From positions 9,097 through 73,096 of the forward strand of contig JBAYFM010000004.1 of NCBI GenBank assembly GCA_041667185.1: a DNA stretch of 64,000 nucleotides, read 5' to 3'. Below the pieces are notes generated by a model. That model did no database searches. It saw nothing but the letters and a program-made list of their open reading frames with translations, and was not told the DNA's origin. Position numbers and translations under genes: made by a program. Positions 9,445 through 18,536 of the stretch are shown here, one piece after another (within the stretch, counting starts at the first letter, position 1; every line of letters begins with the position of its first letter). The stretch is from Patescibacteria group bacterium. GTDB taxonomy: Bacteria; Patescibacteriota; Patescibacteriia; SG8-24.

Positions 9445-9836
9445 TGGTGGAGATGGGGAGATTTGAACTCCCGTCTGGCGAGGTATTTCCCGACACTTCT
9501 ACAAGCGTATTCCGTTTGGTATTTCGGCTCGGCGGTGAGAAACGGAATAAACCCGCCGGACCTATCCCCTGCAATGGTCGGCCTGTCCGCCGGGGCCGCG
9601 GTCAGGCTCTGTCCGATAGATGACACCGGGATCCCGCTTATCGGACGTCAGCGGGGCCGATGGGTTCGCGCGTTACGCGAGAACCGGAGCGAATGAAGGC
9701 GCGAAGGCGTTAGCCAGGGCGGTCTTCACCCGATTGACCAAGTTTGCACTTGTTCAGTATCCGTTGATTTACGAGGTAACGGACGTCCTCGGCTCGCATG
9801 CCGTGAAAAAAACTCCCATCGATGCCTGGCATCCCC
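9445..9836 (-). ncRNA. ssrA: tmRNA (ssrA), standard one-piece
   Basis: On the reverse strand the 5' end GGGGAUGCCAGGCAUCGAUGGGAG pairs with the 3' end ...GACGGGAGUUCAAAUCUCCCCAUCUCCACCA. Acceptor stem is 7 bp with G3:U, the T-arm is GGGAG/UUCAAAU/CUCCC, and CCA is encoded. The putative tag frame is GCA AAC UUG ... GUU CUC GCG UAA, giving ANLVNRVKTALANAFAPSFAPVLA*. The gene is directly downstream of smpB and is followed by a hairpin plus U-tract. Confidence 0.8.
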
Positions 9837-10410: not shown

Positions 10411-12297
10411 TCATTCGACCGGGACCGTCGGATCGTCCGCGATGAGGCCGCGATCCTTGAGGACGGAAAAACGGTGCGCGACGAACCCTTGGTAATCAGC
10501 GCTGCCCGGGACGAGGTCGTAACGCATGGCGCGCGTGAGATCGTCCAGCGAGCGCTGGCTGTCGGCCGTGGCCTCGATGGCGCGGGCGGCCTTGGCATAA
10601 AGAACGTTCGCAACGAACTGGCGCAGCGCGGGCTGATCCGCGAGTTCGGCTTCGGCGGGCAGGACTGGCGGTTCGAAACCCGGACCAGGATCGCGGCGCG
10701 TGCCGTCACGCAGGAACTCGAAATGCAAACCGTCGGCGCGCGACCGCCAGCCGGACACCAGCGAATCCGCGGCGAAAGTGAGGAAGAGCGGCCGCCCGGC
10801 GAAACGCTCGTCAGCCAGGACCGCCGCGAGCAGCCGCTTCTGCTCGACGCGCAGATTCGCGTCGTCATACGGCACCGGCAACACCGGCGTCGTGAAGCAG
10901 CTCATGCCGGAATCCTCGACGATCGTCACGTCGGGACGCAGATGCTCGACGACGCGCAGATAAGCCAAAGAGAGAACAACCGTGTCGTGGGTGAAGACGC
11001 CGCCTTTGACCACGAGCACCGCGTCCGGCGGCAAAGTTTCGAGAACGCGGCGGCTGTAAGCCTCCACGAAACCGTCGGAATAAGCCGCGACCTGGACCAG
11101 ATTGTTCGCGATGAACAGGATGGGCAGCGCCAAAAGAAAGACCGCCGCGGCCAGCCGCAAGAACAGCCGCCGCCCGGGCTCAGTGAGCGATCGCACGGCC
11201 GCGGCCGCGCCGACGGCAGCCAAGACAGCCAGGAACAAGTAGCCGCCGACCGAGTAGACCCGCGCCAGATATTCAGTAGTCTCGTTCAGGGCGGAAGCGC
11301 GCAATAATTGGGTGAGCGGCGCTCCGAAAACTATGCCGAGCGACGCCAGACCCGCGACCCAGGCGACCCGAAGACGGCGCGTCCGCAGCAGCAGGAAACC
11401 ACCGACGGCGGCCAAGCCGATCACGAGCGGACCGAGATAGACGGCGAGATGCCAGAAAGACACTCCGACCAGACTAATCTTGTTGTAGGACAACAGGCCG
11501 AAATCCTGATGGCGGCGGAACACCAGGTCCAAAAATCCGCTCAAGCCTTCAGCCGGCTGAAAGATGAAAGGCGCTCCAAGCCAGGCAGCCAGCGGCAGAT
11601 ACAGATACGGTGAGAGACCGAGCGCCAAGCCGCCGACGGCCGAGCGCCAGGCGTGACCAGATGTCCATGCGCGCAGCTCAATCAAAACGGCGGCGAGGAT
11701 GACGAGCGGCAAGGACGCGGCGGCCAAAAAAAGGTGGTTGGCGCCGGCCAGGCCGACGAATAAGAAAAACCAGAAGAGCCGACGAGGGCTGGAAGCCGCG
11801 GCGTAACGGATCAGCATGACCACGACCAGGGAGAGCAGCAAGGCGTGCAGCGGGTAGACCTGGGCATAGAGCGCCTGACCCCACCAGACGCTGGAATACG
11901 CCGCTTGCAGCAATATCGAGGCGATGGCGATCTTCTCCAGCCAGCTCACGCTCCCCCGAAGCGCGAGATAGGCGCGCTCGGCGATCCAGTAAGCCGCGGC
12001 CACGGCAGCGGCGGCGCAGACGGCGGAGAACAACGCGATCCGCCAGGGTATCGTCCCGAACGGCAGCCAGGAAAAGACGTGAGCCAGAAGCACGTAAAGC
12101 GGGTAGCTTGAGGGATGCGGGATCCCCAAAACCGCCGCGACCGTGACGAACTCGCCGCTGTCTTCGAAGGACACCGTGCGCGGCAGGGTCGGCAAATAAG
12201 CCGCCAAAGACAAAACGAACAAGACGACCGGAACAAAGACGGTCGAACGCCCCAGATCAGCCAATTTCTGCCTCAATCGATCCATATCACTGCCCAT
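10411..12297 (-). CDS. Large polytopic membrane protein, DUF2723/GT-C-like (putative glycosyltransferase, PMT-like)
   Basis: Twelve or more TM helices. N-terminal motif SFEDSGEF in the first loop resembles the catalytic-loop DE motif of GT-C/PMT-like families. Family assignment is from memory of the motif only. Confidence 0.5.
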   Translation of the reverse strand: MGSDMDRLRQKLADLGRSTVFVPVVLFVLSLAAYLPTLPRTVSFEDSGEFVTVAAVLGIPHPSSYPLYVLLAHVFSWLPFGTIPWRIALFSAVCAAAAVAAAYWIAERAYLALRGSVSWLEKIAIASILLQAAYSSVWWGQALYAQVYPLHALLLSLVVVMLIRYAAASSPRRLFWFFLFVGLAGANHLFLAAASLPLVILAAVLIELRAWTSGHAWRSAVGGLALGLSPYLYLPLAAWLGAPFIFQPAEGLSGFLDLVFRRHQDFGLLSYNKISLVGVSFWHLAVYLGPLVIGLAAVGGFLLLRTRRLRVAWVAGLASLGIVFGAPLTQLLRASALNETTEYLARVYSVGGYLFLAVLAAVGAAAAVRSLTEPGRRLFLRLAAAVFLLALPILFIANNLVQVAAYSDGFVEAYSRRVLETLPPDAVLVVKGGVFTHDTVVLSLAYLRVVEHLRPDVTIVEDSGMSCFTTPVLPVPYDDANLRVEQKRLLAAVLADERFAGRPLFLTFAADSLVSGWRSRADGLHFEFLRDGTRRDPGPGFEPPVLPAEAELADQPALRQFVANVLYAKAARAIEATADSQRSLDDLTRAMRYDLVPGSADYQGFVAHRFSVLKDRGLIADDPTVPVE

Positions 12298-14546: not shown

Positions 14547-15377
14547 ATGAAGATCACGACCAAGGGAACCGACCAGCAAGGTTGCGTGGGAGAACCCCTG
14601 CAGCCTCTCCAGGTCTGGCTCAAGGAAGAGTGCGGGCTCATCAACATGCCGGTGCACTTCCGGCTGATCAAGGGTCGCGGAAAATTCACGCATCGCGACG
14701 AACGGACTGATTGGTCCGGCGAAGCGATCGCGGAATTCATTCCCGAAGCGGCTGGGCCGTATACGATCGATTGTCTGATCGGCCGCCGCGAACAGAAAGG
14801 GCAAACGATGCAGAAAGTCTCGTTCACGGGACAGATTTCCCCAGCAGCACCGCCGAAGTCCGACTTCACAAGCGACATCTCGCAGATGATCGATGAGGAA
14901 CTGGCTGTGGCGGACCAATCCAAGGTCTCCGCGCCAGCGACGGAATCACCGGCGCCGACATCGTCGTTCGAGACGCTGTTGGCGGCAGAACTGGCGGTCG
15001 ATGAAGACCTGCCGCCGGCCGAACAGATCGAGCCGGTCGAGCCGCAAGCGCCTCCCCCGCCGGAGACGCCCCCAGCGGAACCCGAGACGGAACCGCTGTC
15101 CAAGCCGGTCGAGCCGGAAAATCTCCGGGACCGCGAAGACAATGCGCAATTCCAGAACGAGGACGTTTCGACCCCGAACTGGAAACAGAAGATCGTCTGG
15201 GCCGTCATGGCTCTGGCGATCGGCGGTTTCCTGGCGATCATTGCCAACCTCGACCGAAAGGGTCAGCTGCCGACCGCCGGAAACTCCGGAACCGGAAGCA
15301 TCGACTGCACTCAGGCCGCTGTCCAGGTCGTTGACGGCGACAAATTCGTCTTCAGCGGCTGCGTCAAACAGCCTTAA
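14547..15377 (+). CDS. Hypothetical protein with acidic, Pro-rich linker, C-terminal TM, and the same C-terminal Cys motif as the upstream gene
   Basis: C-terminal TM (IVWAVMALAIGGFLAIIA) and C-terminus DCTQAAVQVVDGDKFVFSGCVKQP. Apparent paralogous module of 14091-14459. Confidence 0.45.
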   Translation: MKITTKGTDQQGCVGEPLQPLQVWLKEECGLINMPVHFRLIKGRGKFTHRDERTDWSGEAIAEFIPEAAGPYTIDCLIGRREQKGQTMQKVSFTGQISPAAPPKSDFTSDISQMIDEELAVADQSKVSAPATESPAPTSSFETLLAAELAVDEDLPPAEQIEPVEPQAPPPPETPPAEPETEPLSKPVEPENLRDREDNAQFQNEDVSTPNWKQKIVWAVMALAIGGFLAIIANLDRKGQLPTAGNSGTGSIDCTQAAVQVVDGDKFVFSGCVKQP

Positions 15378-15544
15378 GTCCAGTTCGGTCCCTCACTAGC
15401 CGCCGAGCTCTCAGCTCGGCGGTTTTTCTTATCCGAGCGCGCGGAACCGGCTCTGCCAGGCCGGGGTCTTGATGAAAAAACGTAAATAGTCTACGATACT
15501 TTTGCTAAAAGCAGCGGTAGCACATCCGACAACTGATCGCGCGT

Positions 15545-15611
15545 GGGTCCGTGGTGTAGCCCGGTTAACACGGGCCGCAGTACTGCGGCCAGACCGAGGG
15601 TTCGAATCCGC
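15545..15611 (+). pseudogene. Pseudo-tRNA copy 1, derived from tRNA-Asp. The anticodon arm is replaced by the 18-nt perfect palindrome GGCCGCAGTACTGCGGCC, and the copy is truncated in the T-arm by the GIY-YIG ORF.
   Basis: GGGTCCGTGGTGTAGCCCGGTTAACACG is identical to the 5' half of tRNA-Asp at 15970. The palindrome then occupies 15573-15590, followed by AGACCGAGGGTTCGAATCC. Preceded by the same 25-nt leader (acatccgacaactgatcgcgcgtgg) as the real tRNA-Asp. Confidence 0.65.
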
Positions 15612-15869
15612 ATGATAACCACCCTTTACGTCATCAAAAATACAAAAGGCAACTACTATATCGGAGTCACTGGAGATATTCACCGGAGACTGATCGAACA
15701 CAATTCGGGAACAAGTCTTGCTACCAGAGGAAGGGGTCCGTGGAAACTGGTGTATACGGAAACTTTCCTTTCGCCGCAAGAGGCGAAAAAACGCGAGTAT
15801 CAGATCAAGCAAAAGAAACGGAAATCATACATTGATTGGTTGATAAATGCGCGTGGGTCCGTGGTGTAG
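15612..15869 (+). CDS. Small GIY-YIG (URI-domain, YhbQ-like) nuclease, second copy
   Basis: MITTLYVIKNTKGNYYIGVTGDIHRRLIEHNSG...WKLVYTETF...EAKKREYQIKQ. The ATG starts 2 nt after the T-loop of pseudo-tRNA copy 1, and the stop TAG lies inside the D-arm of pseudo-tRNA copy 2. Confidence 0.75.
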   Translation: MITTLYVIKNTKGNYYIGVTGDIHRRLIEHNSGTSLATRGRGPWKLVYTETFLSPQEAKKREYQIKQKKRKSYIDWLINARGSVV

Positions 15870-15914
15870 CCCGGTTAACACGGGCCGCAGTACTGCGGCC
15901 AGACCGAGGGTTCG
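15856..15914 (+). pseudogene. Pseudo-tRNA copy 2 (5' acceptor, D-arm, palindromic arm, partial T-arm GAGGGTTCGATGCC)
   Basis: Same as copy 1 up to the T-loop; no acceptor 3' strand. Confidence 0.6.
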
Positions 15915-15969
15915 ATGCCAATCATCCTGATCAAAACAGAGGTCGTACATCCGACAACTGATCGCGCGT

Positions 15970-16047
15970 GGGTCCGTGGTGTAGCCCGGTTAACACGTCT
16001 CCCTGTCACGGAGAAGACCGAGGGTTCGAATCCCTTCGGACCCGCCA
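15970..16047 (+). tRNA. tRNA-Asp (anticodon GUC)
   Basis: Acceptor GGGTCCG/CGGACCC. D-arm GTGT-AGCCCGGTTA-ACAC. Anticodon arm TCTCC-CTGTCAC-GGAGA. Variable region AGACC. T-arm GAGGG-TTCGAAT-CCCTT. Discriminator G and encoded CCA. Confidence 0.85.
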
Positions 16048-16048
16048 T

Positions 16049-16081
16049 AAAAGAACTGTTCATGTCGAACGGTTCTTTTAT
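16049..16081. terminator. Hairpin flanked by A- and T-runs (bidirectional terminator-like)
   Basis: aaaagaactgttcatgtcgaacggttctttt. Confidence 0.5.
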
Positions 16082-16091
16082 TTTGCCGCTC

Positions 16092-16170
16092 CTGCCCATG
16101 GTGTAGCCCGGTTAACACGGGCCGCAGTACTGCGGCCAGACCGAGGATTCGAATCCCTTCGGACCCGCCA
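16092..16170 (+). pseudogene. Pseudo-tRNA copy 3: degenerate 5' acceptor strand (CTGCCCA), D-arm, palindromic GGCCGCAGTACTGCGGCC arm, T-arm, acceptor 3' strand CGGACCC and GCCA
   Basis: Direct reading; the acceptor stem cannot form. Confidence 0.6.
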
Positions 16171-16173
16171 CGT

Positions 16174-16201
16174 AAAAACCGCAGCGCAAGCTGTGGTTTT
16201 T
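16174..16201 (+). terminator. Rho-independent terminator
   Basis: aaaaaccgcagcgcaagctgtggttttt. Confidence 0.6.
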
Positions 16202-16355
16202 ACGTACCACGTGGACTGCCTGAAAGGTAGTCTTTACGTGGTCGACCACGGGGGCTCTTGACATTTTTTTTTTGCTATCCGCTATACTCCACCCCGCTCA
16301 CTCAACTGAGCGCCCTAAGCACTCGTTTGGGGCAACCGAAAACAGGAGACGAGAG

Positions 16356-17183
16356 ATGAAATCGCTCATTCAAAAACAAGTTTTGGCCGTCTGCGAAGTG
16401 CTTGCATTCTGCGCCCTCACTGGTTGCGGGACCGAAGACGAGACCATTGATCCGGACAACCTTCTCGATTCCGTCGACACCGTCGCGCAAGCCCTGGATT
16501 CCGCGCATACGCGCGTAATCCAAGAGTGCTCGCAATCCATGTCCGGCAGCTGGTGGACGTACAACGAGACCAACTGGCCGACGGGGACGACGTACGGGAC
16601 GTATGCGTACATCTCCAACGATCTGGGAGCGTGGGGAAAGTTGTTGGATAACACCTACAACTACGGAATCAGAGGCTGGTGGACGTCGTGCAGAAAGACA
16701 AACTCTCCGCAGACCAACAACTACGGGCCCTGTAGTCTTACGTACGGCGATCTGGACACCGCGAGCCTCTACGATTGCCAAGGCACATGCACGGGCGGCA
16801 TTCACCATCGTGGCGGACAATGCAAGCCATTCATGAACTTGGTGGCGTACCGCTCTGGCACGTACCAAAACCCGGGCTACGCTTGGAAGTCATTCCCGAA
16901 CGACGCCACGATCGCGGCAAGCGACCCCAACGGCACGCTCATGCCTGCGGCGACCTATGCGAATATCGTCGAAGGGGATTACCTCCGGCGACCCTACGGA
17001 CACGCCTTGATCATAGTTCGCAAGATCAGTAGTTCCCAGGTCATCGTGTTGGATTCGAACTGGTCCGGCGGCAACGGGACGGAACAAATCTCATCACATA
17101 GCATGGCCTTCGGCAGCGGCGATAGCGACAGCAATCTGGGTGCCTATCGCGTTCTTAAATGCGCATATACGGGCGGATGTTGA
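16356..17183 (+). CDS. Lipoprotein with C-terminal CHAP / NlpC-P60-like cysteine peptidase-amidase domain (putative cell-wall hydrolase)
   Basis: Internal start MKSLIQKQVLAVCEVLAFCALTGC (lipobox) with AGGAGA RBS. Candidate catalytic Cys in GGQCKPFMNLVAY and His in YGHALIIV, with downstream VIVLDSNW. N-terminal region rich in W, Y and C. Confidence 0.55.
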   Translation: MKSLIQKQVLAVCEVLAFCALTGCGTEDETIDPDNLLDSVDTVAQALDSAHTRVIQECSQSMSGSWWTYNETNWPTGTTYGTYAYISNDLGAWGKLLDNTYNYGIRGWWTSCRKTNSPQTNNYGPCSLTYGDLDTASLYDCQGTCTGGIHHRGGQCKPFMNLVAYRSGTYQNPGYAWKSFPNDATIAASDPNGTLMPAATYANIVEGDYLRRPYGHALIIVRKISSSQVIVLDSNWSGGNGTEQISSHSMAFGSGDSDSNLGAYRVLKCAYTGGC

Positions 17184-17208
17184 TGCTCATGTACATATGA
17201 CGCATTTC

Positions 17209-17238
17209 GGGGAGGGTTTCATGCCTCCCCTTTTTTCT
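17209..17238 (+). terminator. Rho-independent terminator
   Basis: cggggagggtttcatgcctccccttttttctt. Confidence 0.7.
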
Positions 17239-17327
17239 TGAAAGACACTTACTACGAGATGATCTTGCGACATACTGATACAATTAGGATAATAGAGATA
17301 AGAGTGTTAAATGTTTGAGACCGCCTT

Positions 17328-18056
17328 ATGATAAAACGATTGAAAATCACGGTCATCTGCATCCTGACCATCATGGCGCTTGCGCTTGTCTTTGTACGTT
17401 TTGCATTACCGAAGCCATCCACGCCAGCGCCCGCGATTACCAAGGCTCCTCCGGTGCCGGCGGGGTCGTTGGTCGATCTCTCCAAGATCGCCTATGACGC
17501 TAAGACGACCGTTCCTGGTACTGGGGTTACCTTTTCATACCCGAAAGAAGGCTATTACGGGAAAGGTGCACAGTTGGTGAATCAAGTATGGACATCTGAC
17601 CTGAATGTTAATCATGCTTCATTTCCCGAAATCGAGAGCCTTTATTTCACTTCACTTCATGACAGTATTTTGAATGCGCAGCAAATCAGTATTCGAGTGT
17701 TTCGGCTCGAAAAAACAACGGACATTGAGGACGTATTGAACGGATTGGGAATACCCGGACCCTATTACCCCCTTCCAGGACGTTTCGAATCAATCAATGG
17801 AACACGTTACTATCTCCAACCTGGAAAAACCTCGGGCCTCAATCTTTTTATTGTCTACGGATACGACGCGTATACGATCGTAAACGGCCGGCTTCTCATT
17901 GTGTCGTTCCAGGGTGGTTTTGATGCAAGCGATGATAATAAGACCCCTGATCTTGTCATGCAATTTCTCTCGCGCCTGGATTTCTCCTGTACGTCTACGT
18001 CGGATTGCTCAGTAAATTCATCTCCGATCATTGTATCAAAGGGGAACGAGCAATAG
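17328..18056 (+). CDS. Secreted hypothetical protein in a locally low-GC stretch
   Basis: Signal peptide MIKRLKITVICILTIMALALVFV. Codon usage and GC are visibly lower than in neighbours. No motifs recognised. Confidence 0.5.
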   Translation: MIKRLKITVICILTIMALALVFVRFALPKPSTPAPAITKAPPVPAGSLVDLSKIAYDAKTTVPGTGVTFSYPKEGYYGKGAQLVNQVWTSDLNVNHASFPEIESLYFTSLHDSILNAQQISIRVFRLEKTTDIEDVLNGLGIPGPYYPLPGRFESINGTRYYLQPGKTSGLNLFIVYGYDAYTIVNGRLLIVSFQGGFDASDDNKTPDLVMQFLSRLDFSCTSTSDCSVNSSPIIVSKGNEQ

Positions 18057-18174
18057 ATTTGAAAAACCTGATAAGGATGAGACGCGGCTATTTTAAAATG
18101 GAATCGGGCTACATGCCATATCTTGATGCCATGAGCGCGGTTCTAATGTCGTCCACAATGCCCCGCCATCGAAG

Positions 18175-18199
18175 AAACGCCCGAAGAAGGGCGTTTTTT
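18175..18199 (+). terminator. Rho-independent terminator
   Basis: aacgcccgaagaagggcgtttttt. Confidence 0.65.
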
Positions 18200-18215
18200 C
18201 GCATCTCGCCAGGAT

Positions 18216-18270
18216 GCCCGGTTAACACGGGCCGCAGTACTGCGGCCAGACCGAGGGTTCGAATCTCCCG
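18216..18270 (+). pseudogene. Pseudo-tRNA fragment copy 4 (D-loop, palindromic GGCCGCAGTACTGCGGCC arm, T-arm, GCCA; no acceptor stem)
   Basis: gcccggttaacacgggccgcagtactgcggccagaccgagggttcgaatctcccgcca. Confidence 0.55.
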
Positions 18271-18536
18271 CCATGACAGGCGTGGATCCCGCTCACAATA
18301 TCGTAATAACAGAAAGCGGGACCTTCGGACCCACGCACATCATTGACGCGACCCCTGATCTTTGCTTATCTTTAGCAAGCGAAACGGTTCTTTAAAAATT
18401 CATTCATGAGACAGCGCCTCGGGCATAAAGGCCCCCACTCCCGCCGACAGCCGGGTTGTGTCCGGCGCGCTGCCTCATGAAAGAGGAAGCCGCCGGCCGG
18501 AGCGACTCCGGCAGATCCAGAACCCAGGAGATGACG

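Follow-up and report, generated by a model that had tools for sequence, protein, structure and literature searches.

A GIY-YIG nuclease gene coupled to hairpin-bearing partial tRNA copies forms a small cassette family within tRNA transcription units of Patescibacteria and other phyla

A 64,000-nt stretch of a Patescibacteria metagenome-assembled genome (MAG), hereafter the window, carries a tRNA-Asp(GUC) gene surrounded by partial tRNA copies (pseudo-tRNAs, psi) and a small open reading frame (ORF) for a GIY-YIG domain protein. We assign this locus with high confidence to a widespread family of small cassettes located within tRNA transcription units. The cassette consists of a GIY-YIG gene for about 85 amino acids, a partial copy of the neighbouring tRNA, and a GC-rich stem-loop that replaces the anticodon arm in that copy. 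We moderately favour the interpretation that it is a selfish, recombination-driven cassette living in tRNA transcription units.

The physical coupling of the gene to tRNAs extends far beyond the window. A protein-alignment scan of GTDB, with one genome per species, returned 295 relatives of the ORF, and the best 80 of these 295 were examined. They come from about ten phyla (Acidobacteriota, Ignavibacteriota, Bacteroidota, Verrucomicrobiota, Lentisphaerota, Chloroflexota, NC10, Cyanobacteria, Patescibacteria and others), and 67 of the 80 have a same-strand tRNA within 400 nt of the ORF; among the 13 without a called tRNA, 10 retain a hairpin-bearing psi directly 3′ of the stop codon. The target tRNAs are Val(GAC) (in most Acidobacteria), Asp, Pro, Ala, Ser, Ile, Asn, Met, Arg and Cys. 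Two layouts were distinguished. In type A (51 of 80), the tRNA ends between a few and about 100 nt 5′ of the ATG, and the ORF reads into a copy of the D-loop, often the source of its stop codon (GGTTAG, GGCTAG or TGGTAG), which is followed by the hairpin and then by the variable loop, T-arm, acceptor 3′ strand and CCA. In type B (9 of 80), the layout of the window, the tRNA begins at the stop codon or just 3′ of it. Most of the 80 possess a partial tRNA copy with the hairpin in this place: an exact-match test placed the hairpin of 40 loci between tRNA matches ending at about position 27 and starting at about position 45, that is, at the anticodon arm (positions 28–44), with the exception of the tRNA-Met and tRNA-Arg clades, in which it replaces one strand of the arm only. 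One tRNA-Met cassette (L061) belongs to a cultured bacterium, Brevifollis gellanilyticus NBRC 108608. In a neighbour-joining tree the ORFs group by the identity of their tRNA, with both types intermingled inside these groups; the two layouts therefore interconvert.

Within the window the order is psi1, the GIY-YIG ORF, psi2, the real tRNA-Asp and psi3, with a solitary psi4 2 kb downstream (Table 1). The tRNA calls, made with ARAGORN and Rfam models, agree with the first-pass annotation in recognising one genuine tRNA-Asp. None of psi1–psi4 was recognised by ARAGORN, and a low-threshold Rfam scan (E ≤ 1) covering window positions 15300–16400 gave no RF00005 match apart from the real gene. As had been noted, psi1–psi3 share the D-arm, the variable loop and the 5′ side of the T-arm with that gene. 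The three exact copies reported for the 18-mer GGCCGCAGTACTGCGGCC, which stands in place of the anticodon arm, were found at 15573, 15883 and 16120, together with a fourth, previously overlooked, at 18230; the chance expectation is 0.07, and four copies were reached in no shuffle.

The junctions of these units follow tRNA substructures. psi1 lacks the 3′ strands of both the T-stem and the acceptor stem; its homology to the tRNA stops 2 nt past the T-loop, as first described, and the ATG does not cut it there but begins 2 nt further on. An unpaired, Shine-Dalgarno-like GAGGG precedes the ATG by 11 nt. The final five codons and the TAG stop of the ORF, the latter within GGTGTAGCC, come from the acceptor 5′ strand and D-arm of psi2, as the earlier description of the stop codon implied. 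A 31-nt spacer separates psi2 from the second of two leader copies, which are indeed identical, over 23 nt and not the 25 nt initially given. psi3 keeps the acceptor 3′ strand and CCA, also as described, has its 5′ acceptor strand exchanged for unrelated sequence and bears a G-to-A change in the T-arm stem; its form equals that of the psi 3′ of the ORF in type A cassettes of other phyla. The core of psi4 is followed by about 56 nt of unrelated sequence and then by a remnant, CCTTCGGACCC, at 18322–18334. The copies are thus dispersed and partial, and form no tandem array. The full architecture (psi1, ORF, tRNA, psi3) recurs at a Chloroflexota tRNA-Ala (L068; L numbers denote loci throughout) and in L075 and L076, and the leader is also duplicated in L075 and L094.

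Table 1. Features of the tRNA-Asp locus in the window, and hairpin variants at homologous loci
Feature	Position or loci	Strand	Basis
Promoter-like TTGATG-17 nt-TACGAT, upstream of psi1	15469–15497	+	Read from sequence
23-nt leader, same sequence as leader of real tRNA	15522–15544	+	Direct repeat
psi1: tRNA-Asp positions 1–27 (acceptor 5′ strand and D-arm), hairpin, variable loop, T-stem 5′ strand, T-loop	15545–15609	+	Sequence comparison
Hairpin 1, GGCCGCA-GTAC-TGCGGCC, replacing 17-nt anticodon arm	15573–15590	+	Exact match; RNA fold −12.8 kcal/mol
ORF, 85-aa minimal GIY-YIG (UPF0213/Slx1-like)	15612–15869	+	Pfam PF01541
psi2: positions 1–27, hairpin (15883–15900), variable loop, T-stem 5′ strand; ends within T-loop	15855–15915	+	Sequence comparison
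Second copy of 23-nt leader, immediately 5′ of real tRNA	15947–15969	+	Direct repeat
Real tRNA-Asp(GTC), uninterrupted, functional	15970–16047	+	ARAGORN; Rfam RF00005, 67 bits (15970–16044)
Terminator-like hairpin 3′ of real tRNA	16047–16081	+	Inverted repeat
psi3: D-arm, hairpin (16120–16137), variable loop, T-arm, acceptor 3′ strand, CCA	16099–16170	+	Sequence comparison
Second terminator-like hairpin; ortholog directly 3′ of tRNA-Asp in L215 and L001	16170–16205	+	Inverted repeat, comparison
psi4, solo core: D-loop, hairpin (18230–18247), variable loop, T-stem 5′ strand, T-loop	18216–18265	+	Sequence comparison
Hairpin variant GGCCGCA - GTAC - TGCGGCC	window, L002, L215		
Hairpin variant GGCCGCA - CTGC - TGCGGCC	L001, both copies		
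Hairpin variant CCCCGCA - GTAC - TGCGGGG	L005, L006		
Hairpin variant GGCCGCA - GGAT - TGCGGCC	L008		
Hairpin variant TCCCCGCGT - CGC - ACGCGGGGA	L216		
Hairpin variant GTCCGAT - GGCC - ATCGGAC	L131		

The same plan, a psi with hairpin followed by the ORF and tRNA-Asp, was found in all close homologues (57–86% amino acid identity to the window ORF; L001, L002/L003, L004/L005, L006/L007, L008, L215 and L216–L218), several of which share an infC-rpmI-rplT...PPDK neighbourhood. In most of them the ORF enters the real tRNA directly and has its stop codon in the real D-loop; psi2 occurs only in the window and L001 and is absent from L002, L215, L005, L006 and L008. Because the relatives are simpler, psi2 is confined to these two loci and the terminator following psi3 is orthologous to the one following the tRNA in L215 and L001, the window thus appears to be a rearranged, more complex form of a simpler ancestral plan. 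An assembly artefact produced by collapsed or duplicated reads, which the first-pass annotation had raised, has in its favour the near-identical repeats inside 700 bp and nothing else. We regard it as practically negligible, given the same architecture with lineage-specific differences in at least eight independent assemblies (NCBI, ENA and Logan) and an analogous one in other phyla.

Comparison of these loci also points to selection on the hairpin. Among the window, L215, L002 and L001, the 65-nt psi1, hairpin included, is 91–97% identical and the 60-nt leader, at 20–35% (ungapped), is randomised; the ORF has a synonymous divergence (dS) of about 0.4–1.8 and a ratio of nonsynonymous to synonymous divergence (dN/dS) of 0.07–0.17, which indicates purifying selection. 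The hairpin and its flanks stay 91–97% identical at a dS of about 1.5. In every genome the psi arms match that genome's own acceptor stem, a pattern of concerted evolution, and the arms could be maintained by gene conversion from the real tRNA. Because the hairpin, unlike the arms, has no donor for gene conversion, it is under selection itself.

The perfect palindrome had been taken to argue for a protein recognition site at the DNA level. Comparison of the variants (Table 1) weakens this argument: the centre varies (GTAC, CTGC, GGAT, GGCC or CGC), whereas the stem is preserved by compensatory double changes (e.g. GG..CC to CC..GG), and a strict palindrome serving as a protein site was rejected, in that form, on account of this variable loop and covarying stem. 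The conserved feature, judged from these alignments, is a stem-loop, and the perfect palindrome is a local accident of one lineage. Across 41 distinct hairpins, the six basal pairs are Watson-Crick in 243 of 246 cells, compared with 168 ± 5 (maximum 186) in shuffled controls; stem positions 3–5 are nearly invariant C-G, C-G and G-C, and positions 1, 2 and 6 covary. Hairpin lengths cluster at 16–18 nt, about the length of the arm that is replaced, with the consensus base NNCCG...CGGNN. G·U pairs fill only 2 of the 246 cells, both in one decayed solo copy. The non-Watson-Crick cells are too few to separate selection on RNA from selection on DNA; the near-absence of G·U and the conserved CCG/CGG base lean slightly towards a role in DNA or protein recognition and are compatible with a role as RNA. 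A known RNA motif, such as an Acidobacteria/Lentisphaerae motif, was considered and set aside: the psi/hairpin unit matched no Rfam family in the window region at E ≤ 1, and a wider scan of 16 homologous loci at the gathering threshold returned genuine tRNAs only.

The ORF product is, by prediction, a minimal nuclease of the UPF0213/Slx1 type under purifying selection. The GIY-YIG assignment made initially was upheld by the Pfam match (E = 2.8e-15; 56.8 bits against a cutoff of 22.6), and profile comparison with the PDB gave 1zg2 (4e-19), 1ywl (1e-13) and SLX1 (4e-7 to 1e-5). The AlphaFold model (pLDDT, the predicted local distance difference test, 88) has the E-E-H-E-H-H topology of GIY-YIG domains, with low confidence for the tRNA-encoded tail of about the last five residues. 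The top Foldseek matches were 1zg2, 1ywl and Slx1 (6seh and 4xm5, including Slx1-Slx4 bound to branched DNA), and UvrC was reached only at E = 0.3. In 15 sequences Y6, Y16, G18, R26, H30 and E62 are invariant, including the catalytic set Y6, Y16, R26, H30 and E62. One domain spans the whole protein, with no second domain, no DNA-binding module and no NCBIfam name. In sequence, fold and minimal domain it resembles UPF0213 and bacterial Slx1-like proteins (1zg2, 1ywl; Escherichia coli YhbQ, Bacillus subtilis YazA) and eukaryotic Slx1; a 2006 phylogenomic survey described such proteins as the minimal form within the Slx1 cluster and did not mention a tRNA linkage (PMC1564403). Slx1-Slx4 cuts branched and stem-loop DNA; Slx1 requires Slx4 and a RING domain, both of which are absent from the cassette. 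Gene callers can extend the ORF upstream through psi1: window positions 15543–15869 give 108 amino acids from a GTG, and P0008 (L216, 248–634) is annotated with 128. The spurious N-terminal 'GPWCSPVNT...' of the extended ORF is translated tRNA sequence.

The cassette is distributed patchily. A metagenome scan with the tRNA-Asp core as query yielded 120 loci, 101 of them with enough upstream sequence; the ORF is present in none of the 120. Some empty loci have a tRNA identical to that of the window (L138 and L192) or rplT directly upstream. By L20 protein identity to the window, occupied and empty loci interleave (L138, 72%, empty; L001, 69%, occupied; L002, 66%, occupied; L192, 63%, empty; L008, 56.5%, occupied). 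Hairpin-bearing psi copies accompany the ORF in 9 of 9 tRNA-Asp loci, versus 2 of 120 loci without it, where they stand alone (Fisher p about 5e-13). This linkage bears on a concern of the first-pass annotation, namely that the copies might be decaying tandem tRNA duplicates unlinked to GIY-YIG genes, or, in a related form, att-type scars of integrase islands. tRNA genes are classic integration sites, the tRNA-Val remnants of L009, L020 and L049 are attR-like and the 2-kb psi3–psi4 stretch is lower in GC, all of which would suit such an origin. No integrase was found within the cassette or adjoining it, the GIY-YIG gene being the sole ORF between the repeats and the neighbouring ORFs having no Pfam match; furthermore, decay would neither generate 41 different near-perfect stem-loops at matching tRNA positions nor preserve them at a dS of about 1.5. 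Together with the near-restriction of hairpin-bearing copies to ORF-bearing loci, this largely refutes the scar or decay explanation, which we consider very improbable.

Possible traces of such islands were noted in three Acidobacteria. In L009, L020 and L049, the start of a tRNA-Val copy 5′ of the cassette falls precisely at the anticodon loop (TTGACACGGTAG...CCA), and the copy looks like the attR of an integrase-type island; among the genes upstream in L009 is one for a ScoMcrA-like protein. The same tRNA genes seem to be used by cassettes and islands. In the window, the psi3–psi4 stretch (16200–18200) holds two ORFs without a Pfam match and has a GC content of 45–49% at 17000–18200, compared with 58–63% around it; it may be an islet bordered by psi repeats.

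Several loci point to multiplication of the unit. Tandem spacer-ORF-psi units occur in L062, L019, L024, L066 and L050. In L081 (1063–2100), a tRNA-Ile is followed by four 87-nt mini-units, a full ORF and two more units, and each mini-unit retains the ATG and the final ~20 nt of the ORF; in a Synechococcus MAG (L082, 1070–1470), three ORF-less hairpin-bearing units lie 5′ of a tRNA-Val(CAC). One Victivallis MAG has cassettes at tRNA-Pro(CGG) and tRNA-Pro(TGG) that share the hairpin sequence, with arms fitting the local tRNA and ORFs about 55% identical. Such arrays could suggest that an anticodon-less, tRNA-like RNA acts as a decoy or antitoxin, binding or inhibiting a nuclease aimed at tRNA or tRNA genes in the manner of a type III toxin-antitoxin system. 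The four plus two units around the ORF in L081, the three upstream units in L082, the presence in L092 of a psi-tRNA of full length whose anticodon arm is closed, and a hairpin close in size to the arm it replaces would all accord with a decoy. However, a lone, incomplete psi that cannot fold as a tRNA is the rule for most cassettes, the simplest relatives of the window among them, and the L081 repeats, with their remnants of the ORF, look like internally deleted cassettes and not like a dedicated RNA gene. The window contains no tandem RNA repeats of the ToxIN kind, arrays being limited to a few distant loci, and the fold is that of a DNA nuclease. To our knowledge, no GIY-YIG RNase has been described. 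Taken together, we judge a decoy improbable.

The expression of the cassette is likely parasitic on the tRNA promoter. The ORF would be co-transcribed with the tRNA, because it has no promoter of its own and lies between the tRNA promoter and terminator. The promoter-like element upstream of psi1 was not called by a consensus promoter scan (8 of 12 matches); better hexamers occupy the same relative position in L002 (TTGATA/TACAAT) and L215 (TTGAAA/TATACT), as well as in the empty sites L192 and L138. Judged from this arrangement, the window element probably drives psi1, the ORF, psi2 and tRNA-Asp as a single transcript. In type B cassettes, the exposed T-stem strand GAGGG, 5–11 nt 5′ of the ATG, would serve as the ribosome-binding site. 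In layouts whose ORF extends into the real tRNA and stops there, an RNase P cut at tRNA position 1 would take off the stop codon, and such a transcript would yield either the tRNA or a complete mRNA, not both; psi2 in the window would lift this conflict. The first-pass annotation had offered, as one of two readings, that the psi copies are tRNA-like punctuation processed by RNase P and RNase Z. This was rejected, since in every psi one acceptor strand and part of an arm are missing, and not one of them scores as a tRNA; the real tRNA is the only plausible processing site at the locus. The window also contains a transfer-messenger RNA (tmRNA) gene at 9445–9836 on the minus strand, whose predicted tag peptide (ANLVNRVKTALANAFAPSFAPVLA) is unusually long; it is of relevance because the ORF/tRNA overlap in the relatives would give non-stop mRNAs.

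Close association with tRNA expression also admits a housekeeping explanation, in which a domesticated gene tied to tRNA operons supplies a nuclease that serves the host, for example at stalled forks or R-loops of highly transcribed RNA genes, the hairpin is an mRNA element (a 5′ or 3′ stabiliser, or one acting in processing or translation control) and local duplication has left the psi arms as by-products. It would fit an ORF that always lies within the tRNA transcription unit and adjoins the hairpin, whether the latter is 5′ or 3′, as well as the strong purifying selection, the largely vertical descent, the high stability of the hairpin as RNA and the GAGGG of the broken T-stem, which recurs at its distance from the ATG in six lineages. 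It fits less well with a presence that is patchy even among genomes sharing an identical tRNA-Asp, and tandem arrays, ORF-deleted minis and multiple copies per genome resemble selfish behaviour. At the RNA level, the scarcity of G·U pairs is atypical of RNA-selected helices, the psi1 5′ untranslated region folds no more stably than its shuffles (z = −0.39), and a plain stabiliser needs neither tRNA-homologous arms nor a conserved CCG/CGG base. On balance we consider a housekeeping role unlikely.

Under the selfish interpretation, the cassette would persist and spread through recombination of its tRNA-homology arms with the tRNA gene. More tentatively, types A and B may be circular permutations of one unit, ORF-(5′ arm)-D-hairpin-V-T-(3′ arm), such that a single crossover 5′ of the hairpin would give type B (psi-ORF-tRNA) and one 3′ of it type A (tRNA-ORF-psi), while recombination between direct repeats might produce scar-free loss, tandem arrays and minis. 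The Slx1-like nuclease may, again tentatively, stimulate recombination by cutting structured DNA, either the hairpin or branched DNA at the tRNA gene; a hairpin between two tRNA-homology flanks would be an obvious candidate substrate. A more far-reaching proposal, which we regard as possible but doubtful, is a new class of mobile element, in which a minimal Slx1-like nuclease recognises or cuts the folded hairpin between the tRNA arms and thereby drives insertion, duplication and homing into tRNA genes, with relatives at RNase P RNA and rRNA loci.

Several observations weigh against a mobile, selfish element. All evidence on the cassette is comparative, and neither movement, nor an excision product, nor cleavage has been observed. 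The ORFs of the Patescibacteria clade have diverged approximately in step with host L20, and the patchiness is therefore explained equally well by homing and by vertical inheritance with recurrent precise loss. A purely selfish endonuclease would not usually stay under strong purifying selection throughout a long vertical descent, and a host function could account for such selection. A protein devoid of a DNA-binding domain leaves target specificity unexplained. A cut at the hairpin followed by standard double-strand-break repair would erase the hairpin instead of spreading the cassette; the idea that the hairpin confers immunity is not self-consistent, because the resident real tRNA keeps its anticodon arm; and arms of 7 bp are short for extruding a cruciform from duplex DNA. 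The family motif is absent from IMG/VR, and no tRNA lies near the phage homologues in GenBank (Rhizobium phages, 44% identity); a viral origin was rejected on these grounds, the plasmid matches being ordinary yazA-like genes. The other reading offered initially, a mobile GIY-YIG cassette using tRNA-like DNA, accordingly stands in part: linkage, patchiness and the range of tRNAs and phyla agree with it, but the protein comprises the catalytic domain only, and classical sequence-specific homing is not established.

Among known systems, the cassette would by analogy work most like the locus of a free-standing homing endonuclease such as SegB. The Seg family of phage T4 consists of free-standing GIY-YIG homing endonucleases, and SegB lies in the T4 tRNA gene cluster (PMC2330249). 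In both cases an intron-less GIY-YIG gene stands among tRNA genes, is present or absent at a conserved site (occupied in L001, L002 and L008 and empty in L138 and L192) and is proposed to spread via host recombination. In contrast, Seg proteins exceed 200 amino acids and have DNA-binding domains, whereas the cassette protein is a bare catalytic core with no such module joined to it, from the Slx1/UPF0213 lineage and not that of homing endonucleases or UvrC; moreover, Seg loci lack hairpin-bearing psi-tRNAs, and cleavage by the cassette protein is putative. Tyrosine-integrase islands and prophages duplicate part of their target tRNA as att sites. Like these integrative elements, the cassette leaves the tRNA functional, directly repeats part of it and has its junctions at tRNA stem-loop regions; unlike them, it is only about 0.3–0.4 kb long, contains no tyrosine or serine recombinase between the tRNA repeats, and repeats either the 5′ or the 3′ part of the tRNA with a hairpin for the anticodon arm. 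Integron attC, IS200/IS605 ends and REP/RAYT are recombination sites of folded DNA that tyrosine or HUH recombinases use. They likewise keep structure over sequence, with a short conserved motif at the stem base and a small mobile unit, but the cassette pairs its hairpin with a GIY-YIG nuclease, whose use of such a site would be hypothetical. Group I introns in Patescibacteria tRNA-Asp and tRNA-Asn genes are self-splicing, are inserted at position 35/36 and mostly lack endonuclease genes (PMC13011429). The cassette shares with them the phylum, the tRNA-Asp target and the condition of a selfish element tolerated in an essential RNA gene; it differs in that its tRNA is uninterrupted, the ORF stands beside the tRNA and no intron family matched at E ≤ 1 in 15300–16400.

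Other RNA genes and further repeats were noted along the way. Homing-type elements usually inhabit conserved RNA genes, and two relatives from other Patescibacteria lie at such genes besides tRNA. In a Doudnabacteria locus (L013), a more distant GIY-YIG homologue (1501–1779) lies about 140 nt upstream of a 16S rRNA gene (1921–2878), with a LAGLIDADG ORF downstream, from 3011. In Parcubacteria GW2011_GWA1_56_13 (L085, 1460–2340), a GIY-YIG ORF (1501–1746) lies between the 14-nt inverted repeat CGCCCCGTGAGATA / TATCTCACGGGG; AGGAAAGTCCG directly follows the repeat-flanked ORF, ACAGAATTCGGCTTAT is found much further downstream, and a below-threshold Rfam RNaseP_bact_a match covers 2054–2340 (51 bits, E = 1e-14). 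This is apparently an RNase P RNA gene with the ORF inside its P3 loop. A unit of about 170 nt was found 3′ of tRNA-Asp and its terminator with or without a cassette (L192, ~10720–10900 in tRNA orientation; L002, 3355–3540; L008, 2875–2990; compare window 16211–16230). It consists of GGGTGTTCGAAGGG, a GC-rich insert of ~100–115 nt with the conserved hairpin GGACTGCCTAGTATGGCAGTCC, GGGAATCCCTTCGGACCCGCCA and a terminator, and is a tRNA-Asp 3′ end with an interrupted T-loop; shorter T-loop inserts occur in psi copies of L049, L058, L069 and L089. The motifs TTTACGTGG / CACGTGG recur, interspersed with small hairpins, 3′ of the tRNA-Asp terminator in the window (16206–16260), L001 (3410–3650) and L215 (870–1010). 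The cassette-free L157 has a degenerate second tRNA-Asp about 220 nt upstream of its tRNA-Asp, with a D-loop insert and a mutated anticodon loop (CTGTCAT).

A full-text search turned up no account of a UPF0213 gene linked to a psi-tRNA that bears a hairpin; most subscription journals lie outside that search, and prior notice is possible. Likewise, no literature on the function of UPF0213-type bacterial proteins, or on a genomic tie to tRNA genes, was found in the papers searchable. There is a real chance that a selfish nuclease cassette at tRNA genes will prove to be a new class once its mechanism is known. For annotation, the psi copies and the ORF/tRNA overlap produce spurious long ORFs and partial tRNA calls, and tandem units can mislead both the assembly of MAGs and the counting of their tRNA genes. 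Structures of UPF0213/YhbQ-type GIY-YIG proteins have been available since 2005, but the proteins have no assigned function; a large clade of them is now tied physically to tRNA genes and a conserved hairpin, a linkage that supplies concrete, cheap test substrates. If the cassette is a hairpin-driven mobile element, this would provide a function for the long-orphan UPF0213 family, at least for this clade. With ~0.35 kb and one 85-aa protein, it would, if mobile, be about the smallest known autonomous element that targets tRNA genes, and would represent a route for colonising an essential RNA gene that needs neither intron nor integrase.

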